From assembly GCF_022846255.1 (NCBI RefSeq), contig NZ_AP025682.1: a stretch of 64,000 bases of DNA; one strand, written 5' to 3'. Origin of the DNA: Escherichia coli. GTDB taxonomy: Bacteria > Pseudomonadota > Gammaproteobacteria > Enterobacterales > Enterobacteriaceae. Below the pieces are notes generated by a model. It made no database searches and was not told where the DNA came from. It was given only the letters and a program-made list of their open reading frames with translations. The number at the start of each line of letters is the position of its first letter. The stretch's first letter is position 1. Of this stretch, positions 7,208 through 50,677 are shown piece after piece. A program made the translations under genes and the position numbers.

Positions 7208-8272
7208 TTAACTGTATGCATGTAGCGTACGTTGGCAAAGTGCCGAACGTACGCAATCCTCTTTACCGAATCGGACGATCCCGACCATTTCATCCTCTTC
7301 GAAACGTTCCAGCGCGTCACTTAATCCGGAGCGCACGCCGCGAGGCAAATCGCATTGCGTGATATCACCGTTGACGATAACCGTCACGTTCTCCCCGAGG
7401 CGGGTTAAAAACATTTTCATTTGCGCGGCAGTCACATTCTGCGCCTCGTCAAGAATGACGACTGCATTTTCAAAGGTACGTCCACGCATATAGGCGAACG
7501 GCGCAATTTCCACCTTCCCTATTTCCGGTCGCAGGCAGTACTGCATAAAGGAAGCCCCTAAGCGACGGACCAGCACGTCGTAGACCGGGCGAAAATAGGG
7601 AGCAAACTTTTCTGCGATATCACCAGGTAAGAAACCAAGATCTTCATCGGCTTGCAGAACTGGACGGGTAACGATAATCCTGTCGACATCCTTATGTATC
7701 AGGGCCTCTGCCGCTTTTGCTGCGCTGATCCAGGTTTTTCCGCACCCGGCTTCGCCCGTGGCAAATATCAGCTGCTTACTCTCAATAGCCTTCAGATAGT
7801 GCAATTGCGCTTCATTTCGCGCGAGGATGGGCGAGGTATCGCGACTGTCGCGGGCCATACCAATGGCTTCTACGCCGCTCATCTGCACAAGCGAGGTGAC
7901 CGATTCTTCTTCACGCTGCTTATGGCTGCGCGAATCCCGTCTCAGCACACGTTTTGCCTCGCGACGAGCTTTGATCACTGCTTTTTGTCTTCCCATGGAG
8001 AGCACCTTGAGTTGTTTGTATTCATCACACGCGCCGTTGGCAGCGCGATTATGCGCACGAACATCAGAGGGTTGGCTTCCTTGTAAGCCATAGTTTGCTT
8101 TTGGATAAAATGCCGAAAAACGGCTACGCGCACCGTTTACGGCGTCGGTAACACATGAAAAGAAAGGATGAGGTTGAAAATACAAAGTGACGAGATGACT
8201 ACCGGAGGAGAAATCTCCGCGAGTGGTGGCGCGCTGATTATCTGAAACATGTCCAGTACAGGACGTTACCAT
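7208..8272 (-). CDS. phoH: Phosphate-starvation-inducible ATPase PhoH
   Basis: 354 aa with a Walker A motif (GEAGCGKT) and a PhoH-family C-terminal domain. Confidence 0.93.
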   Translation of the reverse strand: MVTSCTGHVSDNQRATTRGDFSSGSHLVTLYFQPHPFFSCVTDAVNGARSRFSAFYPKANYGLQGSQPSDVRAHNRAANGACDEYKQLKVLSMGRQKAVIKARREAKRVLRRDSRSHKQREEESVTSLVQMSGVEAIGMARDSRDTSPILARNEAQLHYLKAIESKQLIFATGEAGCGKTWISAAKAAEALIHKDVDRIIVTRPVLQADEDLGFLPGDIAEKFAPYFRPVYDVLVRRLGASFMQYCLRPEIGKVEIAPFAYMRGRTFENAVVILDEAQNVTAAQMKMFLTRLGENVTVIVNGDITQCDLPRGVRSGLSDALERFEEDEMVGIVRFGKEDCVRSALCQRTLHAYS

Positions 8273-27189: not shown

Positions 27190-27723
27190 TCCTCACACCT
27201 CTTTTGTTATCAATAATTAAAGAGTGTGACAGAAATATGTCATTTTTCCGGGAACAGGTTCGCAAAATGGCTCGTTGAACGCCTGTTTTTCTATATTCTC
27301 CTTTAAAAACAGGCAAGTTTTGACGCAAACTATGCCTGATTAGCCCCGGCCTCGTTTACGCCGCTAATGATTACATCAGTAGCTATAAAGAAAATCAGCG
27401 GCGTTACCATTACCAATAAAAAAAGAATGTGAGACTAATAGAAATGGTTTTTAGCACATGTCTTTATCATTAAATTGCATAACGATTTAAATAGTCGAGT
27501 TGTGCATTCCTTTCCTTATTGTTTAACTTGTAAGCATGAGCCAAAAGTTCAGGAGGGAGGTAAATAAAATATGTTCCTCCCACCTTGAGGCGACCTCCCC
27601 TCCGCGATGATTTCAATAACATATTCTGTGTTGGCATATGAAATTTTGAGGATTACCCTACACTTATAGGAGTTACCTTACAGGGGTTCCTTCAATTTGT
27701 GTTGATTTACGCGAGATAACGCT

Positions 27724-35240: not shown

Positions 35241-35766
35241 GATAGCCTCATCAATAATAAGGCTTTATGCTAGATGCATTCTGCTTTGCGACTCAACCTT
35301 TTTCACCTAAAGGATGACAAAATCACATAAATAATTTAAAAATCATAGCATTAGATTACTTAATGATTAAATAATAGACTGCAAAACGCGACAAAACACA
35401 ACATATCCAGTCACTATGAATCAACTACTTAGATGGTATTAGTGACCTGTAGCAGAGCATTAGCGCAAGGTGATTTTTGTCTTCTTGCGCTAATTTTTTG
35501 TCATCAAACCTGTCGCACTCCAGAGAAGCGCAACGCCTCGCAATCCAGTGCAAAGCTTTGCGTGCCCCCACTACGACCTGCATAACCAGTAAGAAGATAG
35601 CAGTGATGTCAAACGACGCAGCTGACTTCTTTTCTTTCACGACTTCCCCACACCCAGCATGCATACCTTTCTGCCATAACTGTAGTGAATGTCTGCTATG
35701 AGCGAGGAGTGATCATTAGCCTCTCAGCCGGATGCCTTAGAGTACGCCAGAAATAAAAGGATTGCG

Positions 35767-36960
35767 CTACTGCGCCTTCCTGTTTTGACGGGATGTGGCA
35801 TATGTCATCGCTACCGCTCCCAGAAGTAACAAACCACTTAAACCAAAAGCACTTCTCCATCCCAGACTGTCGAATACCAGACCTCCAGCTGTTGAACCAA
35901 GTGCAATAAATAACTGAATCACCGCAACCATGAGGCCTCCCCCCGTCTCTGCATCTTCGGGTAACGCGCGTGCTATCCATGTCCACCACCCCGTTGGCGC
36001 AGCTGTCGCAAGTAGCCCCCACAGGCTGAGTAGAACGGCAACAGCCCAGATATGGTGTCCGACCAGCAGTAGCGCACCGGTAATCGCTGCCATAAGCAAC
36101 GGGATCATGATTAAGGTCTTATAAAATGTGGTGTTCAGGAATGTTGAGACGATCATTGTGCCGACAAAACCTGCTACGCCTATTGCGAGCAAAATCAGAG
36201 AAAGATCAGAAGGTCCCACTCTGGTGACGCTCTCCAGAAAGGGGCGCACGTAGGTAAATAAAGCAAACTGTCCCATAAAGAAGAGTCCGCAGGCCAGCAG
36301 TCCCGTTGGTACGATGGCAACGCTGAACAGGCGAAGCACAGATCTCTGTGGCTTTTGTGTTTTATCACTTTCCATCGGAGGCAGACTGACCCATTGCCAG
36401 ATGAACGCAGCTATCGCAAGGGGGACCAGACATAAAAAGGCCCCACGCCAACCGATGGTTGTCCCCAGATAGCTACCAAGCGGCGCTGCTACAACGGTGG
36501 CCAGCGCGTTGCCGCCGTTAAAAATTGCCAGTGCGCGGGAAACCTGGTGCTGCGGCACGAGCCGAATGGCGGTTGCAGCCGACATTGACCAGAACCCTCC
36601 GATGACAACACCAATCAGAGCCCTCCCCAGCATATAAATCGGATAGTCAGGTGCTATAGTGATAATTATTCCCGATATGGCCATTAAGACCGTCAGTCCT
36701 AGCAAAAGATATTTTCGATCCAGGTCTCCGACAATACGGGAGATAGTCAGACTGGTAAGCACCGCCAGCGCACCAGAGACAGCAATTCCTTGCCCTGCCA
36801 GCCCTTCGGTAACGTGCAAATCATGGGCAATGAGCGTAAGCAGGCTGACTGGCATAAACTCAGAAGCGATCAGCACAAACACGCAAAGCGTCATGGCGAA
36901 TACGCCGCTCCAGTATGCATGCGTTTTTCCGTATGATTGTTTGAGACTTACAGTGGACAT
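35767..36960 (-). CDS. MFS transporter (12-TM, DHA1-like), strain-specific accessory gene
   Basis: 397-aa polytopic ORF with MFS signature-like GRALIGVVIGG; it lies where torS would be in K-12. Confidence 0.75.
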   Translation of the reverse strand: MSTVSLKQSYGKTHAYWSGVFAMTLCVFVLIASEFMPVSLLTLIAHDLHVTEGLAGQGIAVSGALAVLTSLTISRIVGDLDRKYLLLGLTVLMAISGIIITIAPDYPIYMLGRALIGVVIGGFWSMSAATAIRLVPQHQVSRALAIFNGGNALATVVAAPLGSYLGTTIGWRGAFLCLVPLAIAAFIWQWVSLPPMESDKTQKPQRSVLRLFSVAIVPTGLLACGLFFMGQFALFTYVRPFLESVTRVGPSDLSLILLAIGVAGFVGTMIVSTFLNTTFYKTLIMIPLLMAAITGALLLVGHHIWAVAVLLSLWGLLATAAPTGWWTWIARALPEDAETGGGLMVAVIQLFIALGSTAGGLVFDSLGWRSAFGLSGLLLLGAVAMTYATSRQNRKAQ

Positions 36961-37137
36961 TATTAGCCCCCCTTAATATCGAACCAGCCAGATTCAGGCG
37001 CAGTCGGGTCAGAAGTTATTCAGGGAATAACGACATAATAGTTGGGTGAGAATAGAGGGCGATGCGGCATATTCTGCATCACACCAGACAGTTAAAAGCC
37101 ACCCGTTTACGACAGGTGGCCTGGTAAACCTTTCGGG

Positions 37138-38289
37138 TTATCTTAAGTTTGCCTTGAAAAATTGCTCAAATTTGGCAAATGGGATCTTACCCGCAACGTT
37201 GTCGTACAGATCAACATGGTTTGCCCCGGGGACAATCACTAACTCTTTCTCTTTGCTGCCGATTGCCTTAAAGGCATCTTCAGCAAAATAGCGTGAATGG
37301 GCTTTTTCACCGGTCACGATGAGTGTAGGGATAGTAACTTCATTAGCATAACTCAGCAGCGGCATATTCATAAATGACAGCGGCATGGTTGCATTCCAAG
37401 CACTGGTTGAGTTGACCGAACGCGCATGGAAACCACGCGGCATGCGGTAATAATCAAAGAACTCTTTCAATACCGGATTTGGATTCGCTGGCAGAGTTTC
37501 CGGCAAAATACGATCGGAAGCGGTGACGTTGCCCTTCTCATCAACGTAAATATCATGCCCGCCTGGCGCGAAAGCGCCATTTTCAGCATCCTTCCAGCGC
37601 TGCATGTTCAGATACTGCAATACGGCACGACGATCGGCAGTGGTGTAGCGGTCTTTGCCATCGCCCACGCCATGCCCCATTGCACGGCTCATGTCATACA
37701 TCACGCTGCTCGCCACCGCCTTGACACGTGTGTCCATCGCGGCGTCGTTTAAGGCCATGCCACCCCATCCGCAGATGCCGAGCAACCCGATACGGTTGCG
37801 ATCCACCTCTTTTTGCAGGCCTAAGAAATCAACCGCCGCGCTGAAATCCTCGGTGTTGATATCCGGAGATGCGACGTTTCGCGGGTAGCCGCCGCTTTCA
37901 CCCGTGTATGAAGGGTCAAAAGCCAGAGTGACAAACCCCCGTTCAGCCAGCGTCTGCGCATACAGGCCACTGGATTGCTCTTTCACCGCCCCGAAGGGGC
38001 CACTAACAGCAATAGCTGCCAGCTTGCGATCGCCACGATCCTTCGGTATATAGAGATCCCCGACTAAGGTGATCCCGTACCGGTTCGGAAAGGTCACCTT
38101 ACGGTGATCAACTTTCGTGCTCTCAGCAAACGTTTTATCCCATTTCTCGACCTGCGAAACGGGCGCGTTCGGATTGGTTGTATCAGCGTAACTCATATTT
38201 GTGACTCCATTTAATGATACGCATAACAGCATGGCGGGTATCGCAGCTGTCAATTTTTGGGTGAAAGCAGTCATCAAAATTCCCCTCAT
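37138..38289 (-). CDS. Secreted alpha/beta hydrolase, dienelactone-hydrolase-like, with a Cys nucleophile
   Basis: 383 aa with an N-terminal signal peptide and a nucleophile elbow GICGWGG (GxCxG), co-directional with the MFS gene. Confidence 0.6.
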   Translation of the reverse strand: MRGILMTAFTQKLTAAIPAMLLCVSLNGVTNMSYADTTNPNAPVSQVEKWDKTFAESTKVDHRKVTFPNRYGITLVGDLYIPKDRGDRKLAAIAVSGPFGAVKEQSSGLYAQTLAERGFVTLAFDPSYTGESGGYPRNVASPDINTEDFSAAVDFLGLQKEVDRNRIGLLGICGWGGMALNDAAMDTRVKAVASSVMYDMSRAMGHGVGDGKDRYTTADRRAVLQYLNMQRWKDAENGAFAPGGHDIYVDEKGNVTASDRILPETLPANPNPVLKEFFDYYRMPRGFHARSVNSTSAWNATMPLSFMNMPLLSYANEVTIPTLIVTGEKAHSRYFAEDAFKAIGSKEKELVIVPGANHVDLYDNVAGKIPFAKFEQFFKANLR

Positions 38290-38444
38290 AAAATGTGCCA
38301 GATACTGGTTTCAGACGGATAACACTGCTGTGCTTTGTTGCAACGTGCACATTATAGTTAGCATTAATAGTGCTAATTAGAGGGTAAAAAATGCTAAGAT
38401 TAATAACATATTGTTCTTAATCGTGATGCAGCAGCAGAGGAAGG

Positions 38445-39332
38445 ATGATGGCGAAACGGGAAAACTATAACGATCTCTATCTGTTTATGAAGGTCGTGCG
38501 AGAAGGGAGTTTTACCGCCGCCGCGCAGAGGCTTGGCCTGGCGCAGTCAGGAATTAGCCGTGCAGTGCGCGAGCTGGAAGAGCGACTGGGCGTGCAGCTT
38601 CTAGTACGCACCACGCGCAAGTTATCGCTCACCCATGCCGGCGAGTTATTCTATCGAAACGTCGAATCTGGATTTGACGCCTTAGATATGGGGCTTGCCA
38701 CGCTGGCCCATTATCGCCATACACCATCGGGTACGGTCCGAATTAATGCGAGCCAGCATGCCATTGATAAAGTGCTTCTGCCGAAGCTGGCGGTGTTTAA
38801 ACAACGATACCCGGATATTCGGCTGGAGCTCATCAGCGAAAGCCGGTTTGTCGATATTATTACTGAGCGCTTCGATGCCGGTATACGTCTGGGCTCGGAA
38901 GTGGATAGCGGTATGGTTGCGGTGCGCATTTCGCCCGATATGGAGATGGCCGTTGTCGGCACACCCGAGCACTTTCGTCGCTACGGATTTCCGCAAACCC
39001 CCACCGATTTAGTGGGTCATCCCTGCATCGCTTACCAGTTCGGCGACGGCAGCCTGTATGCCTGGGAACTCAATCAGGACGGTAAAAAGATCACCCATCA
39101 GCCTCAGGGACAATGGGCCTTTGCTGACAGTTATATGGAAGCCAAAGCCGCGAGGCTAGGTCTGGGACTGGCTTATGTTCCGGAGGAATTGGTGTCTGAT
39201 GATATAGAACAGGGGGCGCTGATCAGAGTTTTGCAATGCTACAGCCAACGCCTGGCAGGTTCATATATCTATTATCCGCACAGAAATGTGTCACCCGCTC
39301 TACGAGCGGTTATCGATACATTGAGAATTTAA
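38445..39332 (+). CDS. LysR-type transcriptional regulator, divergent from the hydrolase-MFS pair
   Basis: 295 aa with an N-terminal LysR HTH (FTAAAQRLGLAQSGISRAVRELEERLGVQLL). Confidence 0.85.
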   Translation: MMAKRENYNDLYLFMKVVREGSFTAAAQRLGLAQSGISRAVRELEERLGVQLLVRTTRKLSLTHAGELFYRNVESGFDALDMGLATLAHYRHTPSGTVRINASQHAIDKVLLPKLAVFKQRYPDIRLELISESRFVDIITERFDAGIRLGSEVDSGMVAVRISPDMEMAVVGTPEHFRRYGFPQTPTDLVGHPCIAYQFGDGSLYAWELNQDGKKITHQPQGQWAFADSYMEAKAARLGLGLAYVPEELVSDDIEQGALIRVLQCYSQRLAGSYIYYPHRNVSPALRAVIDTLRI

Positions 39333-40099
39333 GGGATGAAGATGAGATGATTCGCAGGCCTGGGTAATAGTTGGAAAACAACGTCCGTTCCTGGCACAGA
39401 GCAGACCATCGGACTAAACTGAAGGTCCTCTCTGTGCGAGAAACGGAAGTTAGCAATTGTGATACAGACGTGGGGCATTACTCGCTTTACAGTGTGTTAA
39501 TCAATTGGAAACAGGTCAGAATTTATTGGGTGGAATGACACCTTTAAACTTCTTGCGCATCGCAAGGAATATCTCCACCAGACGGTAAGACAGTAGATTG
39601 CGCCACAAGTCCTCAGAATGCCCTTTGCTGGGTTAACCACACGTCGTAATCATCCTTCCAGTGCAGCGGATCAAGATCCGTAATGCTCATAGTCACGCGA
39701 TTTCAAATACAAGCCCAGTGGTGTTATCCGTGAGCTGGACAGTGCTTCCGGCAACATGACTGAGACAGACAAAAAATCAGTTAGTACAGCATTGACTCAG
39801 GTTGAGCAGGAGTTAAAACAAACTGGGCTGGAGCAGTAGAAGCCTGCAGTGAATTCCCTGAATCAGGCGATTAAGTTGGCTTAAGAGTCCGTGTATGCCA
39901 TGTGCCGCGAGATGTCGTGCTATACGTGAAAGTCAGCGATATATATCGTTTTGAAGATGATTTAGGTTACGGGAGTGTCTCTGGGTGATGTATTACTTCA
40001 TCGACATCGGCTACGCACGGGTTGCCGCGATGCAGCGGATGGAAGCTGTCTGGGAAAAGAAAGCTCCGCTTGCTAATATTAGTACATCCGATGAAAAAT

Positions 40100-42797
40100 C
40101 GTGTGTGAAAGTTGCAGATTCGTAATATACTAATGAAGAATGGAGATGTATTTTATATAATAAAAACATCTAAGTAGAGCTTTTTATTTTAAATCCTTCA
40201 TTATTACTGGAGATTTTATGGGTTTTTATAATGACGCACTGAGTAAAATATATAGTGAAGATGATGATTTCCTAATTATAGGATTAACAGGGAGGACGGG
40301 GTCAGGCTGTTCAACAGTTTCTAATATACTGTCATCAGAATCAAGTGAGATAAAGCATTCTCTATTTAACGGTGATTACCCTAAGTCGAATGAAGAAAGA
40401 AAAGAGCGGGTTCTATTTAAATATTTTTCCGTGTCATGGGTTCCATTTATAAAGATACAAGCAAGTTCCATACTGACATTGTGTTTATCAAAGGACTTTG
40501 ATGGTAAGCTGAATAAATTTATTCGGGAAGTGACGGAGTTAGGTAATGACCAAAGAATCCTAGAGTCAACAGTTAATGATCTTGAATCTATACTAAAAGA
40601 AATTAAAGCTAAAGATGAAAGCTCTGATCATGATATAGATGATAAGATAAAATTCATAAATGAATATCTAATAAAAGCGAATACACAAATTAAATCCATA
40701 TTTAAGAACAAGGCTGACTATATAAAACTATATCAAGCTATAGGTAATAATTATAGATCTAGTGGGATGTACCATGACAGTTCATTTAGTGATGATTTCC
40801 ATGGTTTTTTTCTTCCTAAAAAAATAAATGATATAATTCAAAGATTAAGAACCTTAGCAAAAGAAAAGAACACAAAAACTGGAGAAAAGAAACCTATTTA
40901 TATAGTTATTGATGCTATAAGAAATCCGTTCGAAGCAACATACTTCCAAGATAGATACTCATCATTTTATTTAATGGCTGTTTCTACAGAAGAGCATTAC
41001 AGGCATCAAAGGCTTAGAGAACAAGGTTTAACTGATGCTGAGATAAAAGATATTGATGCAAAAGAATACCGTAAATCATCTTTGGATGAGAAGTCATCAT
41101 ATATATATCAGAATATACAGTCTTGTTTAGAAATATCAGACATCTATGTTGAGAATCCGGAAGAGGAAAATGTTGTTTGTCGGTACTCAGGATTGGCTAA
41201 TCAATTAATTAAATTCACTTCATTAATGAAGCGTCCCGGTATAATAACTCCATCAAATGTTGAACGTTGCATGCAGATAGCATATACAGCTAAGTTGAAC
41301 TCTGGTTGTATATCCAGGCAGGTAGGCGCTGCAGTATCTGATAGTTCATTTTCAATTAAGTCTATTGGTTGGAATGATGTACCAAGTGGTCAAGTTCCTT
41401 GCTCTTTAAGGGATAGGTTTGATTTGTCTGAGGGGATTGATGATATTGCTTACTCTGAATTCGAAAAGAACGAAAATAGTTTCATTCGAAAAATAGATAG
41501 CACTAAGATTATTTTTTTAGATGTTAAAAATAAAGGAATGAGAGCTCCATTTTGTTTTAAAACAGAATGGAATAATATCCTTGATGATAAATACAAAGAA
41601 GATCTACGGGTCGAGCATAAGTTAAATGATGATGAGTTTGCTATTATTGACAAAATAAAGTCTAACGCTAATCAAGTTTTTACAAGATCACTTCATGCTG
41701 AAGAGAATGCTTTCTTACAAATATCTAAGTATGGTGGCGTTGGTATACAGAATGGTTTTTTGTTCACAACAGCAAGCCCTTGTGAATTATGTTCTAAAAA
41801 AGCGTATCAATTAGGGATCAAACAAATATATTACATAGATCCATACCCTGGTATAGCAATGAGGAATATTTTAAACGCAGGGAGCAATAAACCATTGCTT
41901 AAGCTTTTCAATGGTGCAATAGGTAAGGCATTCCATAATTTTTACACGCCAAGAATGGCTTATAAAGATGAGCTTTCAGCAAGATCTAGGGGGTGAAAAT
42001 ATTGATACAGGTAAAGGCAACGAACCAGAAATGCTCGAGACTATTCTGGCTAAGTCTGCCGGGCGATAAGCACGAGTGCATATGCTGTTCCAAAAGTCTT
42101 CTATTCAATAAATTACGAAGTGCTAACTAACTGACCATGTACAATAAGAACAAATCGCCTTGAATTGCTCTTGATTGAATGGTGAAGAATTATGAGGGTG
42201 ATAGTCCTTACCACCCTCAATTAAAATTAAAGGTATTTACGTGAGAAATTTTTCTTAACCACACTACTAATAAAACTATTTAGTCCATGCCCATCCTGGG
42301 CTAGCGCTTTCATCTTAGAGACCGTTGAAGCACCCAGTTTTGTAGAATCGTAACGTATTTCCATCCATCTTTAAACTGTACTGTGATAACATCGGGAGTA
42401 ATCTCATAAAACACTATTCCCGAATTACCGCCTTAATTAGCATAAGTTGGCATTTTTAATTCTTATTAAATTATTGCAGCAAGTCGCTGCACTCTAGTCA
42501 TATGACCCCATGCTAAACCTAATTGTTGAGCTAAGTCATAATTTCGATTATTTGATGAACGTAAGTTATTTGACAGGCAGAATTAACCATACACAGTAAT
42601 ATCCGTTTCTGGCACATAGCAGTCCTATAGATAGTGGCATACAGTCATAGATGGTCGATTGGAGGAGGTGCAAATTCTCCCATACAAAAAATACGTAAAA
42701 TCAATAACAGCTGGAAATTATTTAATAATCAAATTATCGGAAGTTCACCAGCCAGCCGCAGTATTCTGCCACGACAAGTTGCTGCGGCTTTTTATGT
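40100..42797. mobile_element. AT-rich accessory insertion (moron / b-region-like) between the core accessory genes and the prophage tail-fibre end
   Basis: Composition is visibly more AT-rich than both flanks. It holds a single long ORF with AT-biased K/N/I/D-rich codons and no other ORF of 60 aa or more, and it is bounded on the right by a terminator and the prophage gene at 42798. Confidence 0.6.
40218..41996 (+). CDS. P-loop nucleotide kinase-like domain fused to dCMP/cytidine deaminase domain (AvcD/DCD-family-like candidate anti-phage deaminase)
   Basis: 592 aa. The N-terminus carries a Walker A-like GLTGRTGSGCST (residues 22-33) and a CoaE/nucleotide-kinase-like hhhhD motif, IYIVIDAIRNPFE (around 230). 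The C-terminus carries a CDA-fold zinc-binding signature, RQVGAAV ... HAEENAF (H493-A-E495) ... PCELC (C522, C525). An RBS, GGAG, lies 7 nt upstream of the ATG. Confidence 0.75.
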   Translation: MGFYNDALSKIYSEDDDFLIIGLTGRTGSGCSTVSNILSSESSEIKHSLFNGDYPKSNEERKERVLFKYFSVSWVPFIKIQASSILTLCLSKDFDGKLNKFIREVTELGNDQRILESTVNDLESILKEIKAKDESSDHDIDDKIKFINEYLIKANTQIKSIFKNKADYIKLYQAIGNNYRSSGMYHDSSFSDDFHGFFLPKKINDIIQRLRTLAKEKNTKTGEKKPIYIVIDAIRNPFEATYFQDRYSSFYLMAVSTEEHYRHQRLREQGLTDAEIKDIDAKEYRKSSLDEKSSYIYQNIQSCLEISDIYVENPEEENVVCRYSGLANQLIKFTSLMKRPGIITPSNVERCMQIAYTAKLNSGCISRQVGAAVSDSSFSIKSIGWNDVPSGQVPCSLRDRFDLSEGIDDIAYSEFEKNENSFIRKIDSTKIIFLDVKNKGMRAPFCFKTEWNNILDDKYKEDLRVEHKLNDDEFAIIDKIKSNANQVFTRSLHAEENAFLQISKYGGVGIQNGFLFTTASPCELCSKKAYQLGIKQIYYIDPYPGIAMRNILNAGSNKPLLKLFNGAIGKAFHNFYTPRMAYKDELSARSRG

Positions 42798-42799
42798 TT
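42755..42799 (+). terminator. Rho-independent terminator at the right edge of the AT-rich segment
   Basis: GCCGCAG ... CTGCGGC stem followed by TTTTTATGTTT on the + strand; no matching T-run on the minus strand. Confidence 0.55.
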
Positions 42800-43109
42800 A
42801 ACGGATAAACAGCCAGACCAGCAGACACGCCACCGCGGGCACCGCAAAATCCATCAGACTTGCCACATCCCATGCACGAGGATCAAAACCGCCCCACCAC
42901 GGCATGTTAATCCGCTTGCCATGCCCGAACATTTCAATCCAGCGATATTCTGCCTGGGTGTGTTCACGCGCAATGAAGAACGTACAACCGGCTATCGCCC
43001 CGTAAGCCCAGTTTCCGGTAAAAAGACCAATCAGTAGCTGCGCAGCCACAGCACAAAGTGCATGAAGGAAAGGTGTTATATCCATTACTCCTCCTTTATC
43101 AGATATCAC
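42798..43109 (-). CDS. Small inner-membrane protein (prophage moron-like, last gene of the late operon)
   Basis: 103 aa with two hydrophobic helices, overlapping the upstream gene by 11 nt. Confidence 0.5.
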   Translation of the reverse strand: MISDKGGVMDITPFLHALCAVAAQLLIGLFTGNWAYGAIAGCTFFIAREHTQAEYRWIEMFGHGKRINMPWWGGFDPRAWDVASLMDFAVPAVACLLVWLFIR

Positions 43110-43800
43110 TTCGGGAAGTTGATAACAACTTTAATTCTGACTCAAGTTCATCAACTCTTTCAGTCAGTTTCTGGATATGGTGAATCAGTGGAACAACCAG
43201 ACGTTCGTACATTACACCTTCGACAACAAGGCCATTGCTGGAAATAGCTTCAGGAGCATCATCTTCGTTAGCTGGTCGCCAGTGTACAAACTGAGGAGCA
43301 ATTTCTCCCACTTCCTCGGCAATCAATCCGTAGAATCCCCAGTCACTCCTGTCATTTTCGCATTGCGACCTGTACCACACAGGGCGCATCCTGAAAATGA
43401 GATCGGCGTGCTCTGAATCTATTGTCTCTACTGAATGTTTATAGCGAATAGACGATGTTGACCGCAGTACAGACGAAATTGCAGGGTCAGGATTAAGATA
43501 AAGATTTGCCGCCGCTGTAGTCGTGCCCAATTCCCATAAATAAAACGCTTCACGGCCAGTCAGCGGGTAAAAATCTCCACCATAACGACCGCTTTCCAGA
43601 TCGTTCACTTCCAGTTTGTTTTTCAGCTTATTATCAACTTCAGTTTTTGTGTATCTGGTGCTGATATCCTGCTTTGCACTGGTCATATCAGTCTGAAGCG
43701 TTGATACTTTTCCGTTAATTGAGGAAATATCTTCCTTAGTTTTACTGACATCTCCCTTTAGCGTGGTGATATCTCCTGGAATTACTGTCGATGTAGCCAT
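43099..43800 (-). CDS. Tail-fibre-associated protein with a C-terminal peptidase-S74 intramolecular-chaperone domain (Tfa position)
   Basis: 233 aa with an N-terminal coiled coil (repeated ...KxDISS/T...), then an S74 Ser-Lys motif SSIRYK and GLIAEEV (compare SDxRxK / GFIAQEV in T5 pb1 and the K1F endosialidase C-terminal domains). Confidence 0.65.
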   Translation of the reverse strand: MATSTVIPGDITTLKGDVSKTKEDISSINGKVSTLQTDMTSAKQDISTRYTKTEVDNKLKNKLEVNDLESGRYGGDFYPLTGREAFYLWELGTTTAAANLYLNPDPAISSVLRSTSSIRYKHSVETIDSEHADLIFRMRPVWYRSQCENDRSDWGFYGLIAEEVGEIAPQFVHWRPANEDDAPEAISSNGLVVEGVMYERLVVPLIHHIQKLTERVDELESELKLLSTSRSDI

Positions 43801-43809
43801 TTGTCTCCC

Positions 43810-44091
43810 TCACATCCAGCCACGAAGTTGATGCTCAACAACAACCGCATATTTATCGAATATTGACGATTTTTTTGCATCATTAATGATGCGCACGTTT
43901 ACAAAATATCCGTCTTCCTTAACACATACCGGTTCGCCATCTTCAGTCAGTTCTCCGGTTTCTTTGTACACGTTACCTATCACGTCAATAAGAATATTAT
44001 CCTGCATCGACTCGTCATCATAATAGCCAGTGCTCTCCATAAAGGCCGAAAAGTCGGCCCTGTCTGCAAATTTGAGTGTTAAATCTTTCAT
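43810..44091 (-). CDS. Hypothetical acidic small protein between stf and the S74 protein
   Basis: 93-aa ORF, start codon overlaps the stf stop. Confidence 0.4.
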   Translation of the reverse strand: MKDLTLKFADRADFSAFMESTGYYDDESMQDNILIDVIGNVYKETGELTEDGEPVCVKEDGYFVNVRIINDAKKSSIFDKYAVVVEHQLRGWM

Positions 44092-46472
44092 TAGATTGAC
44101 TCCCCCACCTGAGCATCAGTCAATGCCTTGTGCCATATTCTGAAATTCCTGACATGACCAAATAAATGACGTAACCCGGCAGTAGTCTGGCCTCCAATAC
44201 GGATAATTGCGGTGTTCTGAATACAGGACCATGTGGTTTTTGTTTCGCTGGATATACGCCCGTTACTTACTGAGCACGTAGACTGATCTGACTTTACACG
44301 CATCCCCATAACCATTTTTTCAAGCGATGCGTTTTCGTTTACCCGTCTGTTAGCTCCTCCAATATCGCAATAAGGAAATCCGTCGTAATCTGTTGAACGA
44401 CCGAAGCCAAGAATAATAGCCGCTCCGGTTTGATGACCGCCGGTGTCAAAAACACGCGGAGCTGCATTTGGCGTTTTATACCAGTTCTTATGTACCTCAC
44501 AAAGAACCGTAAAAGGAAGATTATAAAGATTATTCTTAATGGGAACTGTAACTATATCGCTTGCGCGGGTCGCCGCCGTCGTTCCTGATATAATAAAAGA
44601 TGATACACAAGGCCCATTTTCTACTTGTGGGGTGGCCAGATAAATATAGTCACCAGATACGGTTGCCCCGCCCTGCTTAGGAGAATACTGTATCTGAGAA
44701 CCTATTTTTAACTCCCCATCAATTGCCTGAATTGTTGCCTCTGCAAAAATCCATCCGGTAGCTTCGTCCTTTCTGACTCTCGCAGTAATCCTTGAGGCAG
44801 CACCGCCTGTCATATTAATTTCAAGCGTTTGTGTATCAATATACGCATCACCAAGAAAAGTTGTTGCGCTACCGTCATATTTATCAAACCGGATACGCAA
44901 CCTTACCTGCAGTTCTGTTTTAAAACGACATGAGGTTGTCACGTGTTTATTATCGCCTGAGACATCAACTGACTTTGTTGCAGCAATTGATGCCATATTA
45001 ATGGCTGAGGTTTGCCCAATCAGAGAATCGTTGCAGACAAACTTTCCATAGGTAAAACCAAAACTATCCGTCCCTGTTTCGGGCACATCCATATTTGACG
45101 ATCGCCCCCAACTGGCAGGGTTTTCCGAATTGAGCATGTAGTTTGTTCTTTGCCCCTCAATAAGCAGGCCATCACGTTCAAACCGTGGCTCGTCAATGGC
45201 AGCCTCTGTCAGCACACCAGATTTATTAATGTAAGTTGCTTTTGATGCGCGTTTAAACTTTACAACCTTATCGCCAGGCATCGTTATTTCATCATCACCA
45301 ATAACAATCTTTTTATATGACGGCGAAAAGCCCGTAATCATATCCAGTGAATCGTTAAACGGTATCCACACATCGGGAAGCGGCTGCAATACTTGTTTAT
45401 ACGGCTCCGCAGCCTGGCTTGCATACTCTCTGGCTGCGTCTTCACTTGCTTTTGCAGCCGTCTGGCTTGCAGCGGATGCTTTCGCCGAGTTAGCCGCCGC
45501 AGTCTCGCTCGCCTTTGCGTTGGTTTCACTGGTTTTTGCAGCTTTTTGACTGTTGGCTGATGCAGTGGCAGAAGCAGCCGCCGCGCTTGCAGAGCCAGCT
45601 GCAGCACTCTCGCTTTCGGCTGCTGCATCCTGACTGCTTTTCGCCGCAGTTTCACTGGCTTTGGCATTCGTTTCGCTGGTTTTCGCTGCCGTCTGGCTGG
45701 ACTTTGCGTTGGTTTCGCTGGTTTTTGCAGCTTTTTGACTGTTGGCTGATGCAGTGGCAGAAGAAGCCGCCGCACTTGCAGAACCAGCTGCAGCACTCTC
45801 GCTTTCGGCTGCTGCATCCTGACTGCTTTTCGCCGCAGTTTCACTGGCTTTGGCATTCGTTTCGCTGGTTTTCGCTGCCGTCTGGCTGGACTTTGCGTTG
45901 GTTTCGCTCGTCTTTGCGGCTGTCTCGCTGTTTTTCGCATTGGTTTCTGATTTTTTGGCTGCTGTCGCGGAGTTTGCCGATGCAGTCTGTGAGGTCGCTG
46001 CCGCCTGTGCGCTGTTAGCTGCATTCGTTTCTGAGGTTTTCGCCGCGTTCTTCGATGATGCCGCTGCAGTTTCGGATTTCTTTGCCGCCGCTGCGCTCTG
46101 AGAGGCGGCTTCGGCGTTGCGTGCCGCTTCTTCCACCATTTCCTGAAAACGGCGCAATGCCTCCGGCATGACATCATCTTCCGTCATGGCACCGAGAAAA
46201 TCATTCAGCGTCCCCGGACTGGAACCTTCATAGACGGTAATGGTCCCAACATGTGATGGCTGAGAACCCTCAATCCACAGGATGACGCTGTACTGACCAT
46301 ACTCAACGTCCATACTGTAACGCCCGGCTTCATCAGGATTTTCAGAGGTCACCGTGTTCACCAATACCGTGGTGCTGTTACGCTTTGCCTTCAGTTGAAT
46401 AGTGCAGTTCTGTATTGGTTTTCCCGCACCATCTTTCAGCACACCTGAGATTTTTACTGCTGCCATATCCAC
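44091..46472 (-). CDS. stf: Side tail fibre Stf with collagen/Ala-Ser-rich tandem repeats and a LamG/ConA-like C-terminal domain
   Basis: 793 aa. The N-terminus matches lambda Stf (KISGVLKDGAGKPIQNCTIQLKA...GRYSMDVEYGQYSV). The centre has in-frame 65-aa repeats (KTSETNAKSSQTAAKTSETNAKASETAAKSSQDAAAESESAAAGSASAAA...). The C-terminus has LamG-like motifs (RHLFGHVRNFRIWHKALTDAQV). Confidence 0.85.
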   Translation of the reverse strand: MDMAAVKISGVLKDGAGKPIQNCTIQLKAKRNSTTVLVNTVTSENPDEAGRYSMDVEYGQYSVILWIEGSQPSHVGTITVYEGSSPGTLNDFLGAMTEDDVMPEALRRFQEMVEEAARNAEAASQSAAAAKKSETAAASSKNAAKTSETNAANSAQAAATSQTASANSATAAKKSETNAKNSETAAKTSETNAKSSQTAAKTSETNAKASETAAKSSQDAAAESESAAAGSASAAASSATASANSQKAAKTSETNAKSSQTAAKTSETNAKASETAAKSSQDAAAESESAAAGSASAAAASATASANSQKAAKTSETNAKASETAAANSAKASAASQTAAKASEDAAREYASQAAEPYKQVLQPLPDVWIPFNDSLDMITGFSPSYKKIVIGDDEITMPGDKVVKFKRASKATYINKSGVLTEAAIDEPRFERDGLLIEGQRTNYMLNSENPASWGRSSNMDVPETGTDSFGFTYGKFVCNDSLIGQTSAINMASIAATKSVDVSGDNKHVTTSCRFKTELQVRLRIRFDKYDGSATTFLGDAYIDTQTLEINMTGGAASRITARVRKDEATGWIFAEATIQAIDGELKIGSQIQYSPKQGGATVSGDYIYLATPQVENGPCVSSFIISGTTAATRASDIVTVPIKNNLYNLPFTVLCEVHKNWYKTPNAAPRVFDTGGHQTGAAIILGFGRSTDYDGFPYCDIGGANRRVNENASLEKMVMGMRVKSDQSTCSVSNGRISSETKTTWSCIQNTAIIRIGGQTTAGLRHLFGHVRNFRIWHKALTDAQVGESI
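45516..45906. repeat. 195-bp near-perfect tandem direct repeat (x2, with flanking partial copies) inside stf
   Basis: The units 45516-45710 and 45711-45905 differ at only a few positions and are in frame (65 aa). Confidence 0.8.
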
Positions 46473-46530
46473 TCCACAAAAAAGCCCGCCTGAACCGGCG
46501 GGCTGTCATAACACTGTGTTACCTGGCTAA

Positions 46531-47130
46531 TCAGAACTTATAACCGACACCCACGATGAAACCGTCAGTGCGCCAGTCGCCACTGCCGGAGCCTTCATAA
46601 GCAATATCAATGGCCACGGATTCGGTCGGGTTAAACTGCACGCCAGCTCCCCACGCCAGAGACGTGTTGCTGTGGCGATCGTCATCACTTCCGGTCAGCA
46701 CATCGTGCGTTTTCCCCTTGTTGTCAGTTACGCGGAGATAATCCCCGGAGAACGTCGAAACACGGCTGTAAGCCACACCTGCCATCGCATAAGCACTGAA
46801 CCATTCATTCACGCGTACAGATGGCCCCGCCATCATGCTGAACCAGCGGTTACGCACTGAATCTTCATGCCAGCGGGTATCGCTGTAATGCGTTTTTTGC
46901 TCATCTTTGGCATTGGCATAACTGAATGACGTCACCAGCCCCAGCGTGTCCGTAAACTCATAACGGTATTTCACGTTAATCCCGTTCAGATCATCGCTGC
47001 CTGGCATATCAGTATGGGTCTGAAGATACCCGGCGCTTAGTGTGGACTGATGCTCTGCTGCGCTTGCTGGCGTACCAGCGGCAACCAGCCAGACTACTGC
47101 GGACAGAATAACAGCACATAATTTACGCAT
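46531..47130 (-). CDS. lom: Outer-membrane protein Lom (Ail/OmpX family)
   Basis: 199-aa ORF with a signal peptide and beta-barrel character, in the lambda lom position. Confidence 0.85.
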   Translation of the reverse strand: MRKLCAVILSAVVWLVAAGTPASAAEHQSTLSAGYLQTHTDMPGSDDLNGINVKYRYEFTDTLGLVTSFSYANAKDEQKTHYSDTRWHEDSVRNRWFSMMAGPSVRVNEWFSAYAMAGVAYSRVSTFSGDYLRVTDNKGKTHDVLTGSDDDRHSNTSLAWGAGVQFNPTESVAIDIAYEGSGSGDWRTDGFIVGVGYKF

Positions 47131-47197
47131 AATTACCTCTCGCTTTTCTGCAATAAAAAAGGCGTCATTTCTGACGCCCGTATTGGGGTTATAAAAT

Positions 47198-50100
47198 TCA
47201 GCTGATACTGATGCCTGCGGTGGCTTTCTTCATCACCACAACCAGCAAATCGCTGATACTTGCTGTGGGATACCAGTCATTTACCAGCCATGCTGACACC
47301 GAAAACTCCAGCGTCATGTGACCGTGACCGGCAGGCATATCAATAACGCCACTGTAAATCAGCGTATTATCCAACGCGGTACGGTTATAAATTTCAGCAC
47401 CGTTTTTCCGCACTATCAGACGGCATGAGGAGTAAATATCAGTATGCTCTCTCTCATGTTTAGCGCCGCTGAATGCCACCGCCGGAATAACAATCTGCCG
47501 GTCAAACGGCTGATCGTCATAAATCCTGACGGTAATGGTCCCTGATGGCCACCGTTCCGGTGCACGGGAGTCCCGGGGGAAAGCTTTGCCCACTGTTTTA
47601 ACGAGATCGCCTTCAATCTGGTTCGCGGACAGTTTTCCCAGAACCCGGCAGTTCTCGTTAATCGTGACGTTGTTGAGCGTCCCGGAGTTCGCATTCACGT
47701 TACCGCTGATATCGGCATTTTTCGCCGTCAGCCGCCCGTCCGGTGTCAGGGAAAATGCCGGAGGATTACCGCCGCTGGTAATGGTGGGAGCCGTCAGATA
47801 TTTCAGGAACACTTCGTTCATGAATATCTGATCGCCCTGACCAACAAACATCGGCTTTGTGTTGCCATTTGCAGGATTAACCATCGCAATCCTGTCCGCC
47901 GCCAGCAGCACCTGACTCTGCATGCCGTCAGGGGTGTTCTCAATACCGGCACCAATACCCGCGATATAAAGGCGTCCGTCCCGCATCTGCTGCAGCTTCA
48001 CAGCCCACATGCTGTTCAGGTTATTATTTGTATCAACCTGAACCTTCTGTATCTGCTGAATTGCCGCACTCTGGTCTTCCAGTTTCTTATTGACGGTCTG
48101 CGTGATTTCATTGCTGACACCCGTAATGGACGTCCTGATTTCAGCCAGGTCAGGCGCAAGCTGACCGTTATCAATCTGCGTCCACAACTCCTGAGCCAGA
48201 TGGGTTTTCCCTATCTCTCCTTTGAAAAAATTCAGATAGCCGGATGCATCATCACTCGGCTGGCCAACAGCCTCCACAAATGCCGATTTGCCAACGGTGT
48301 TCACACTGCGGATGTAAAAATAATAATCATGGCCCGGTTTGATATTGATACTGGCGGCTATCCAGTACAGCGCCGTGCCAAGATAGCGTGCTGTGGTTTC
48401 AACCTGCCTGATATCCGCAATCCGCTTTTCCGAGAACCAGAACTCAAACTGTACCGTCGGATCATAAACCGCAAGATGCGGCGTGGCGGTTATCTGAAAA
48501 TACCCCGGTGTCAGCTCAATCTGCGACGGCGCTGCCGGTGCGGCAATCCGGAACGATACCGATGCCGGATCGCCCTGCTGCCCCCACGCATTTACCGCCC
48601 GGACTGTCAGCCTGTAGTTCCCCAGCGCCAGTTGCCTGAAGCGGTATGTGGTTTCCGTCGTCCGGGCCATGCTGACCAGCCGCTCACTGCCGTCGTCCGC
48701 TGCCACGGTAAGGCGAAGCAGGAAGCTCACGCCCTTCACCACCTTCGGCGTGTCCCATCGCGCCAGCACCTGATATTCCCCGCTGTCTGCGGTGACTTCG
48801 GCGGTCAGGTGCTGCACCGCTGGCGGCGTGACACCATTCACCGTGCCGCTCTGGTCGCCGTCAAAGTGCGCCCCGTTATCCACGATGGCTTCTTTTTCCG
48901 GTACATGCTGCACGGCGGTGATGGCATACGTACCGTCATCGTTCTCCCGGATACTCACACAGCGGAACAGGCGCTGGCGCAGCGTCGGCAGCTTCAGCCC
49001 CCATACGCTGTATTCAGCAACACCGTCAGGAACACGGCTCACTTTCACCTTCACGCCGTCGGTGACGGACTGAACCTCCACGCTGACCGGACTCCCCTGC
49101 CCGTCAACCAGGCTTATCAGCGTGGTGCCGGAGGATGGCAGCGTGATTTCACGGTCGAGCGTCAGCGTCCGGGTCTGGCTGTTTACCGCCAGCACGCGCC
49201 CGCCGGTGCTGATACCGGCATAGTCATCATCACAGATTTCAATGACATCGCCCGGCACATGGCGAAGCCCTTCTGCGCCCACGCTGAAGTCCACGGTCTG
49301 CGTTTCCAGCAGTTCTGTTTTAATCAGCCACAGCCCGGCGCGGTGTGCCTGCCCCCGGCTGGTACAGCCAAAAGCATCCATCTTCGTGACGTTACGACCG
49401 TAACGGGCAATGGCCTGCGTGTCCTCCACAAGCTCTGTCGCCGTCTCCCAGCCGTTGTTCGGGTCAATCCAGTTCACCTCAACGGCATTATGGCGGTCTT
49501 TCAGGGCGCTGAAGCTGTAGCGGAACGGCGCGCCATCATCCGGCATCACCACATTACTGCGGTTATAGGTCCACACCTTATCCGACGGTCGGTCCTGCAC
49601 GAACGTCAGCGTCTGCCCGTTCCATACCGGCATACAGCGCATCGCCGAGCAGAAATCACTGAGCACATCCCACGCCTTGCGCTGTGTGGTCAGGTACGCA
49701 TTACAGGTGATGCGCGGCTCCGTGCCGCCAAAACCGTCCGGCACTGACTGGTCGCAATACTGGCCGATGACATACAGCGCCCATTTATCCACATCTGCCG
49801 CACCAAGACGTTTCCCCATGCCGTAGCGCGGGTGGGTCAGCATATCCCACAGACACCAGGCCATGTTGTTGCTGTATGCTGGCTTAAACGTTCCGTCCCA
49901 GATACCGCTGTATTGCCGCGTCTGCGGGTTATAGTTCGACGGCACCTGCAGAATACGCCCGCGCAGATGATAATTACGGCTCACCTGCTGGCTGCCGAAC
50001 TGCTCCGAATCCACCTGCACGCCGACCAGTGCCGTGTTCGGGTAGCACTGTTTCACATCGATGATTTCGGTGTATGACGACCAGAGCGTTTTGTTCTGCA

Positions 50101-50677
50101 GCTGGTCTGTGGTGCTGTCCGGCGTCATCCTGCGCATCCGGATATTAAACGGGCGCGGCGGCAGGTTATCCACCACCACCGAGGCCAGATACTGCGAGGT
50201 GGTTTTGCCCTTAATGGTGATGTCTTTTTCCGTCACCCAGCCACCGTTACGTTGTATCTGAACCAGCAGGCGGACTTCCGATGGATTCCTGTCCCCCTTT
50301 GAGGTGGTTTCCACCAGTGCCTGCACACCGAAGGTAAAGCGCAGACGGTCGATGTTTGCCGACGTGATGGTGCGGGTGATCGGCGTGTCGTATTTCACTT
50401 CCGTACCCAGCACCGTCTCGGAACCGGAGGATTCAAATCCCTCCGGCGGTGTCTGCTCCTGCTCACCTGCCCGGAACACCACCGTGACACCGGAGATGTT
50501 GGTATTCCCCTCACTGTCCAGCACCGGCGTACTGTTCAGCAGCACGCTTTTTAATCCATCCACCGGACCTTCAACCGGCCCTTCACTGATGGCATCAATC
50601 ACACTCAGCAACTGCGTGGATTTCAGGTTGTCCTTCGCTTCGCGCGGGGTATGCCCCTTACTGCTGCCTTTACCCAT
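47198..50677 (-). CDS. J: Tail tip host-specificity protein J
   Basis: 1159 aa ([24 protein letters not shown]...). It is collinear with lambda J, but the C-terminal part diverges. Confidence 0.9.

Follow-up and report, generated by a model that had tools for sequence, protein, structure and literature searches.

A divergent AvcD-type dCTP deaminase as probable anti-phage cargo in the b-region equivalent of a lambda-like Escherichia coli prophage

Depletion of nucleotides by dCTP deaminases has been an established form of immunity since 2022. The Escherichia coli AW1.7 protein depletes dCTP and protects against phages; its G29A and C30A mutations abolish both defence and dCTP depletion, and mutations at the zinc site, C370A and C401A, identified further residues that are required for defence (Tal et al., bioRxiv 10.1101/2021.04.26.441389). 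In the Vibrio cholerae system the AvcD enzyme is accompanied by an RNA, AvcI, which lies immediately 5' of the gene on the same strand and has a minimal length of 152-174 nt within a transcript of ~300 nt (Hsueh et al., bioRxiv 10.1101/2021.03.31.437871; PMC10511110). From one species to another such RNAs have no conserved sequence; the AvcD enzymes characterised so far become toxic when the RNA partner is missing, and the S52K mutation, which restores the Walker-A lysine, inactivates V. cholerae AvcD (PMC10511110). No solved structure of an AvcD protein was found in the literature or the PDB. We analysed a 64,000-nt stretch (the window) of the E. coli contig NZ_AP025682.1 (RefSeq assembly GCF_022846255.1), in which an earlier note, made from the letters alone, had singled out one open reading frame (ORF), at 40218..41996 on the plus strand, as a candidate kinase-deaminase fusion of this kind. 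We find that this gene is an intact, divergent member of the known dCTP-deaminase (AvcD-type) family, and not a categorically new system.

The ORF starts with ATG and encodes 592 amino acids (aa); a Shine-Dalgarno sequence, GGAG, lies 5 bases 5' of the start codon (40209-40212). Its exact coordinates, together with an island of GC content 0.29-0.36 over ~40.0-42.7 kb (as against ~0.45-0.58 on both flanks), bear out the earlier description of an AT-rich frame foreign to its surroundings. Two domains can be delineated in the protein, both encoded on the plus strand: an N-terminal P-loop nucleotide-kinase-like domain (residues ~18-340; 40269..41237) with a helical insert at residues ~98-225, and a C-terminal zinc dCMP/dCTP-deaminase domain (residues ~345-592; 41250..41993). 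The former contains a Walker-A-like loop, GLTGRTGSGCST (residues 22-33; 40281..40316, plus strand), in which Cys31 replaces the canonical lysine, and the hhhhD motif IYIVIDAIRNPFE (residues 227-239), whereas the latter is marked by RQVGAAV (367-373), HAEEN (493-497; nt 41694-41708) and PCELC (521-525; nt 41778-41792). All five motifs had been picked out by the earlier note, and each was recovered in place. The Pfam dCMP_cyt_deam_1 match runs from residue 347 to 539 and takes up 193 residues for 98 profile positions; the deaminase core thus contains an insertion of about 95 residues, close to the ~100 aa by which the signature had been thought to be split.

Profile matches, a pairwise alignment, fold comparison and genomic context agree in assigning the protein to the kinase-like plus deaminase fusions of the AvcD/dCTP-deaminase family, as had been proposed. 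The PADLOC dCTPase model PDLC02373 matches it with E=5.3e-127, and the NCBIfam model NF041025, "anti-phage dCTP deaminase", is aligned over its entire length (1-437/437) with 370.7 bits and E=1e-110. More than 4,500 homologues were found, and matches of such strength cannot be put down to chance. The earlier note had called for an alignment to the known deaminase proteins: AW1.7 is present in the genome collection, its 576-aa gene encodes the very protein tested by Tal et al., and the window protein aligns with it end-to-end (residues 8-586) with 38 % identity and E=6e-123. NF041025 is an equivalog with a curated cut-off of 400 bits, which the window protein does not reach even though all 437 positions are aligned; from the sequence comparison this shortfall is a near miss that stems from divergence and not from a different architecture. 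The ComEB model TIGR02571, taken as the mark of housekeeping and phage dCMP deaminases, gives 36.6 bits against a cut-off of 219, and only the C-terminal domain aligns to dCMP deaminases in the PDB.

Conserved residues were read from an alignment of 62 family sequences. The loop G28-S29-G30-C31 is invariant in all 62, as are H493, A494, E495, P521, C522 and C525. The AW1.7 residues G29/C30 correspond to G30/C31 of the window protein and C370/C401 to C364/C395, all of them invariant, such that every mutationally defined defence residue of AW1.7 is retained; likewise, E384 and C411/C414 of the V. cholerae enzyme have their equivalents in E495 and C522/C525. Both domains typical of the AvcD family, the N-terminal P-loop kinase-like and the C-terminal zinc deaminase domain, are present. 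C19 and C49 of T4 Cd align with C364 and C395, and the latter two may form a second zinc site. The cysteine in the Walker-A position had earlier been taken as a hint that the kinase-like domain is regulatory. Given that it is found throughout the family and that G29A and C30A kill defence in AW1.7, it is no argument that this copy is merely regulatory; it is a functionally required hallmark of the family and not a sign of a degenerate copy.

An AlphaFold2 model built on the 62-sequence alignment has a mean predicted local distance difference test score (pLDDT) of 84 and a predicted template-modelling score (pTM) of 0.82. It consists of an adenylate/dephospho-CoA-kinase-like domain and a dCMP-deaminase domain, and Foldseek returns the same two groups. 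The latter domain was confidently modelled around the HAE and PCxxC residues, where the earlier note had anticipated a cytidine-deaminase fold, and is structurally nearest to phage and cellular dCMP deaminases, including the bi-DCD of PBCV-1. Four long helices are predicted with pLDDT 82-95 for residues ~98-225, a part of the kinase-like domain whose sequence differs among the family members; this suggests a folded helical insert and not a disordered one. The K/N/D/I-rich low-complexity middle that had been described for the protein corresponds to this insert.

The window protein forms a clade with three relatives, P0002 (90 % identity), P0003 (71 %) and P0004 (59 %). While the insertion in the deaminase domain is for the most part family-wide, a stretch of ~26 residues within this helical insert (residues ~453-478; 41574..41651, plus strand) is found only in these four proteins; it is modelled as helices with lower confidence (pLDDT ~69-78). 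Residue 488 (nt 41679-41681) is phenylalanine in all four, as against histidine in at least 90 % of the family. The family histidine sits just before the HAE motif, near H94 of T4 Cd in the alignment. A second, structural zinc site may exist with C364, C395 and C446, and the exchange could affect it. The NF041025 scores, obtained for the four clade members as well as P0008 and P0051, amount to 366-386 bits in the clade, 386-392 in Pseudomonas relatives, 401 in a Neisseria protein and 416-449 in the validated E. coli clade. The clade and the Pseudomonas homologues thus fall below 400 bits, yet they are aligned over the whole model and keep all key residues. This sub-threshold score accounts for the RefSeq label "hypothetical protein", under which the identical sequence has also been deposited (e.g. 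ALD26572.1).

Taken together, homology, conserved residues, the structure model, the intact ORF and a context of defence genes make it quite probable that we are dealing with a functional anti-phage dCTP deaminase, acting as a single protein, of the family described by Tal et al. and Hsueh et al., and that the lambda-like prophage carries it as cargo which protects the lysogen. By analogy with the characterised relatives, the enzyme would be made in the lysogen from its own putative promoter and held inactive, until a lytic superinfecting phage shuts off host transcription and a labile inhibitor is lost. The active enzyme would then turn dCTP, as well as dCDP and dCMP, into deoxyuridine nucleotides by deamination, and these would be channelled to dUMP by the dUTPase of the host; with dCTP exhausted, phage DNA replication would stall and fewer or defective virions would result. 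Both domains would be needed in this scheme, the P-loop domain probably binding a nucleotide or phosphate moiety or controlling assembly, and probably not transferring phosphate. As inhibitor in this clade, a canonical upstream AvcI (150-300 nt) is improbable; a shorter transcript or an overlapping one may act instead, or the protein may carry its own control.

The history of the gene as mobile cargo can be read from its immediate neighbourhood. A 90 %-identical copy resides on a Rep3/TraM plasmid (L012), where it adjoins a restriction-modification system, and the homology of this plasmid to the window is confined to 40089-41988, that is, to a 129-nt leader and the gene. The cassette delineated in this way spans ~1.9 kb (40089-41996). 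On its left lies a remnant of mobX, a plasmid mobilisation gene (39717..40113, plus strand), which in blastn searches shows 70-73 % identity to mobX in 127 plasmid places; in tblastn comparisons MobX residues 46-176 are matched with 68-78 % identity, interrupted by three in-frame stops and one frameshift. Given that this decayed gene still abuts it, the cassette is of plasmid ancestry. On its right, the last ~57 nt of a gene for an OLD-family ATP-dependent nuclease are preserved (42012..42068, plus strand), with 93 % identity to positions 8001-8058 of the locus L002, the 3' end of the gene for WP_044866928.1; this protein matches the PADLOC models Old (E=1.3e-55) and AriA (5e-45). Beyond this stub, on the minus strand, stands a decayed 75-aa ORF (42227..42446), a homologue of WP_001557863.1 and companion of the OLD nuclease slot, with an early stop in the window copy. 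The segment 42012-42619 as a whole is homologous to ~124 E. coli genomes, in which the OLD nuclease fills the slot with the same 600-nt downstream flank; thus, the same slot holds the deaminase in 5 genomes and the OLD nuclease in ~124. The homology of the plasmid copy, the mobX remnant and the nuclease stub together indicate that a plasmid-derived deaminase cassette overwrote, and thereby displaced, an earlier defence gene. The intact OLD/75-aa pair (L002 6178-8439) lies among the early genes of a Qin/Rac-like prophage, flanked by hokD and by DUF977/replisome-organiser genes, which suggests that the OLD module is used at different prophage positions.

The wider setting is that of a prophage end. 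The left part of the window is a chromosomal segment, rut-wrbA-agp-cbpA-torDAC-torR-torT, and 5,419 of 5,426 E. coli genomes share homology with it up to ~35312, just past torT, which in K-12 is followed by torS. Positions 35329-35709 are 91.9 % identical to lambda (J02459) 27327-27708, the P arm of attP annotated 'int 1' and 'int 2'. Given that the core homology ends where this P arm adjoins, we place attR (P-O-B') at ~35.3 kb; the chromosome/prophage junction with its lambda-type P arm, Int sites and b-region end occupies 35313..35709 on the minus strand. Integration is beside torT and not at the gal-bio site of lambda, although the P arm is 92 % lambda-like. The other side is formed by a lambda-like tail end on the minus strand (42798..50677), comprising a membrane ORF, an S74-chaperone tail-fibre protein, a Stf-like fibre, Lom and J, as recognised by the Pfam domains Peptidase_S74, phage_tail_N, Ail_Lom and GpJ and by the RefSeq annotation of the strain SF-468. 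The interval 35.7-42.8 kb is therefore flanked by the lambda P arm and by tail genes, and the earlier placement of the gene in a b-region equivalent of a lambda-like prophage is upheld, with the gene ~5 kb inside the prophage. What had been taken for host DNA to the left of the gene, in contrast, proved to lie within the prophage: it is a module of an MFS transporter, an alpha-beta hydrolase and a LysR regulator (35691..39406, identified by Pfam). This module recurs with 99 % identity in CFIAFB20120266, inside a P2-like prophage between sheath and tail-fibre-assembly genes, and from these comparisons it is mobile prophage cargo and not host core DNA. A 78 %-identical copy of the module is held by ~828 further genomes.

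The gene was present in 5 of the 5,426 complete E. coli genomes, with the ORF intact and 99.6-99.7 % identical in all five. The 90 % cluster spans E. coli, Proteus terrae and Yersinia enterocolitica, and a scan of one genome per species yielded only three loci, with 43-44 % identity. Such a patchy distribution and the association with mobile elements are as in other members of the AvcD family. Of the other dCTP deaminases of E. coli LF4-1 and CV839-06 (L004, L005) and AW1.7 (L003), two adjoin a P2-like prophage's integrase beside ypjA and one adjoins an integrase near tRNA-Phe; since these copies, too, sit at element edges, a location at the end of a prophage or island seems typical of the family.

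Several observations weigh against a functional defence enzyme at this locus. Its identity to the nearest tested enzyme is only 38 %, NF041025 falls short of its cut-off, and the ~26-residue insertion or Phe488 could change activity or regulation. Furthermore, some E. coli copies of the 90 % cluster, including that of O25b:H4-ST131, are split into 340 + 202 aa, from which we infer that the gene is being lost in some lineages. A promoter scan predicted no strong sigma-70 promoter in the leader, which contained no 9/12 match, and gave fewer promoter-like matches than shuffles; thus, the leader promoter is only putative. Lastly, AvcD relatives are toxic without an RNA partner, yet none was detected at the 592-aa gene. 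Some of these points would also fit a plasmid gene trapped in the prophage as a decaying or silent passenger, unexpressed or inactive: its neighbours are wreckage (the mobX pseudogene, the OLD stub and the decayed small ORF), no strong promoter is predicted, split copies exist, and the family-conserved histidine 488 has been exchanged. We nevertheless consider this improbable, for 592 codons have remained open in DNA of 31 % GC, which readily gives rise to stops, no catalytic or mutationally defined residue has been lost, and both Shine-Dalgarno sequence and TATAAT box are shared with the copy on the plasmid. F488, moreover, is shared by all four clade members, which are 59-90 % identical and occur in four different genomic contexts, and is hence best seen as a selected trait of this lineage, as opposed to recent damage. 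A metabolic role, in which the enzyme would serve prophage replication by supplying dUMP in the manner of T4 Cd or the chlorovirus bi-DCD, draws on the phage-borne position of the gene and on the structural proximity of its deaminase domain to dCMP deaminases such as the PBCV-1 bi-DCD, which also accepts dCTP. However, dCMP deaminases are single-domain proteins of ~130-190 aa, the ComEB score is far below its cut-off, and the full-length homology is to a family shown to block phages. In addition, a tblastn search of 50,697 phage genomes returned no full-length match and only four weak partials (25-27 % identity over 53-61 % of the protein), and the gene lies in the dispensable b region, antisense to the late genes and beside other swapped cargo. 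This role is hence the least credible of those considered.

Within the reading as a defence enzyme, a further alternative concerns its control, namely that the locus constitutes a complete type III toxin-antitoxin pair like AvcID, where an RNA from the same strand upstream, within 39381-40217 and overlapping the mobX remnant and a 46-codon ORF, binds and inhibits the deaminase and is rapidly lost after phage-induced shut-off of transcription. In V. cholerae, V. parahaemolyticus, Proteus mirabilis and enterotoxigenic E. coli (ETEC) the inhibitor RNA lies immediately 5' and often overlaps a small ORF, and the window offers 837 nt of non-coding DNA upstream of the gene with a 46-codon ORF on the same strand (39985-40125). 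As an AvcI-type small ORF, this frame was ruled out: it is the C-terminal fragment of the decaying mobX pseudogene. The DNA that travels with the gene is likewise restricted. The 129-nt leader shared with the 90 % plasmid copy (40089..40217, plus strand), which comprises the 3' tail of mobX, a TATAAT box (40156-40161, with only 3/6 matches in the -35 box) and the GGAG sequence, is shorter than both the minimal AvcI and its transcript. The 71 % relative P0003 (L006, ~40 % GC, in a gmk-rpoZ-spoT neighbourhood) has 60 nt from the preceding stop codon to its ATG, its AT-rich cassette starting exactly at that stop, and the 59 % relative has a leader of ~150 nt after a terminator hairpin. A comparison of the upstream regions of the 90 %, 71 % and 59 % relatives revealed nothing in common beyond the 129 nt. 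The leader folds no more stably than shuffled sequences (z=-0.3), and sliding synonymous-codon identity across the gene showed no elevated window, with no excess conservation in the 5' coding region. An Rfam scan of 38.5-43.5 kb (E<=1) found no relevant family, its three microRNA-precursor matches coinciding with a junction hairpin (39379-39454). Given that the known AvcI RNAs share no sequence and have no Rfam family, homology is no bar to such an RNA, nor can it settle its presence; conservation alone is no better a guide, since in the validated E. coli clade, too, the cassettes have no conserved DNA upstream. Still, every indirect test speaks against a canonical AvcI in this clade, which appears somewhat unlikely, and the AvcI-type small RNA that the earlier note had named as a neighbour of such genes found no support here. 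We regard the complete toxin-antitoxin arrangement as doubtful. As a tentative counterpart, of about the same low likelihood, the clade of the window protein and P0002-P0004 (Escherichia, Proteus, Yersinia and plasmids) may consist of dCTP deaminases that are self-contained and work without any RNA antitoxin. Candidates for a built-in switch would be the 453-478 insertion, the H488F exchange, or the P-loop domain with its cysteine, which might sense nucleotides.

Immediately 3' of the LysR gene, at the island's left junction, lies a very stable 82-nt hairpin (39375..39456) with a minimum free energy of -39.3 kcal/mol (z=-7.0). Its left arm, TCCGTTCCTGGCACAGAGCAGACC (24 nt, 39384-39407), recurs 3.2 kb away, with 2 matches against 0.02 expected; arm and hairpin correspond to the repeat family D1 and the inverted pair I1 of the window. 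This recurrence is the second copy (88 %) of the 24-nt junction motif TCCGTTYCTGGCACAKAGCAG and stands at the right island edge (42602..42625, plus strand), where the homology to L002 ends. The homology breakpoints to three unrelated genomes fall on copies of the motif, at 39381, 39406 and 42616-42619. The hairpin and the 24-nt motif may serve as a joint at which cargo modules of prophage accessory regions recombine. A related hairpin is held by the locus L013 at 7378-7432.

To the left of 39381, the five genomes with the deaminase arm carry DNA unlike that of the window (SF-468, L001 9137-11873). It encodes a hypothetical protein of 372 aa, part of an integrase, and a DUF4365 protein, which matches the PADLOC model Aga_REase-PNTD1-PNTD2 (8.5e-22) and is possibly a second defence gene next to the deaminase. 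In the tail region of the window, the Stf-like ORF (44091-46472, minus strand) contains long internal repeats rich in alanine, serine and threonine, with SETNAK/SQTAAK units, and the region shows an extreme AT skew (-0.56 at 45.5-46.0 kb). The SF-468 counterpart of this ORF is annotated as several fragments and aligns with internal repeat shifts.

Another E. coli prophage copy leaves the general picture of nucleotide-depletion immunity unchanged. What the locus adds is, in part, an annotation gap: this sub-clade and many Pseudomonas relatives score 8-34 bits under the NF041025 threshold, and since such members carry the label "hypothetical protein", though PADLOC recognises them, surveys by RefSeq name undercount the system. 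A clade that moves with a leader of only 60-150 nt also offers a handy test of whether AvcI-type RNA control is universal; if it were RNA-free, a whole immune function would be contained in a 1.9-kb promoter-plus-gene cassette hopping between plasmids, chromosomes and prophages. Furthermore, at this locus the replacement of defence cargo in the b region of a lambdoid prophage is readable, its breakpoints lying on a 24-nt motif that is repeated. The possible independence from AvcI, the clade insertion and the boundary motif are of modest value for follow-up and not by themselves surprising.

Compared with the known systems, the window protein is closest to that of AW1.7 (WP_045268677.1), with which it shares the architecture, the G-S-G-C P-loop, the mutated cysteines and a position at the edge of an integrated mobile element. 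It differs from it in belonging to a separate sub-clade (371 bits with NF041025, as against 449 for AW1.7), in the extra ~26 residues at 453-478 and F488 in place of histidine, and in the shorter helical insert of its kinase-like domain; upstream, AW1.7 has an intergenic region of 524 nt, in contrast to the 129 nt of co-travelling DNA here. With V. cholerae AvcD-AvcI (DcdV-DifV), compared via published residues, it has in common the fusion of a P-loop kinase-like and a dCMP-deaminase domain, the conserved catalytic glutamate and two zinc cysteines, a non-canonical Walker A and the location on a mobile island. However, the Walker-A position is occupied by serine there and by cysteine here, and the RNA partner is not detectable here, the co-travelling DNA of the clade being too short for a canonical AvcI.

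The stand-alone dCMP deaminases (T4 Cd 1vq2, cyanophage S-TIM5 4p9c, S. mutans 2hvv and chlorovirus bi-DCD 7fh4) are metabolic single-domain proteins of 126-173 aa, to which the 592-aa protein adds a kinase-like domain of 340 residues and a helical insert of ~95 residues. These smaller enzymes are under allosteric control by dCTP and dTTP. At the level of the locus, swappable defence cargo is a familiar feature of prophage accessory regions such as the b region of lambda and the accessory loci of P2. The window conforms to this pattern in that its slot holds either an OLD nuclease or a deaminase and its LysR module also occurs in a P2-like prophage, and it stands apart in the visible scars of the exchange, the nuclease stub and the mobX pseudogene, and in junctions that fall on the 24-nt motif and hairpin.

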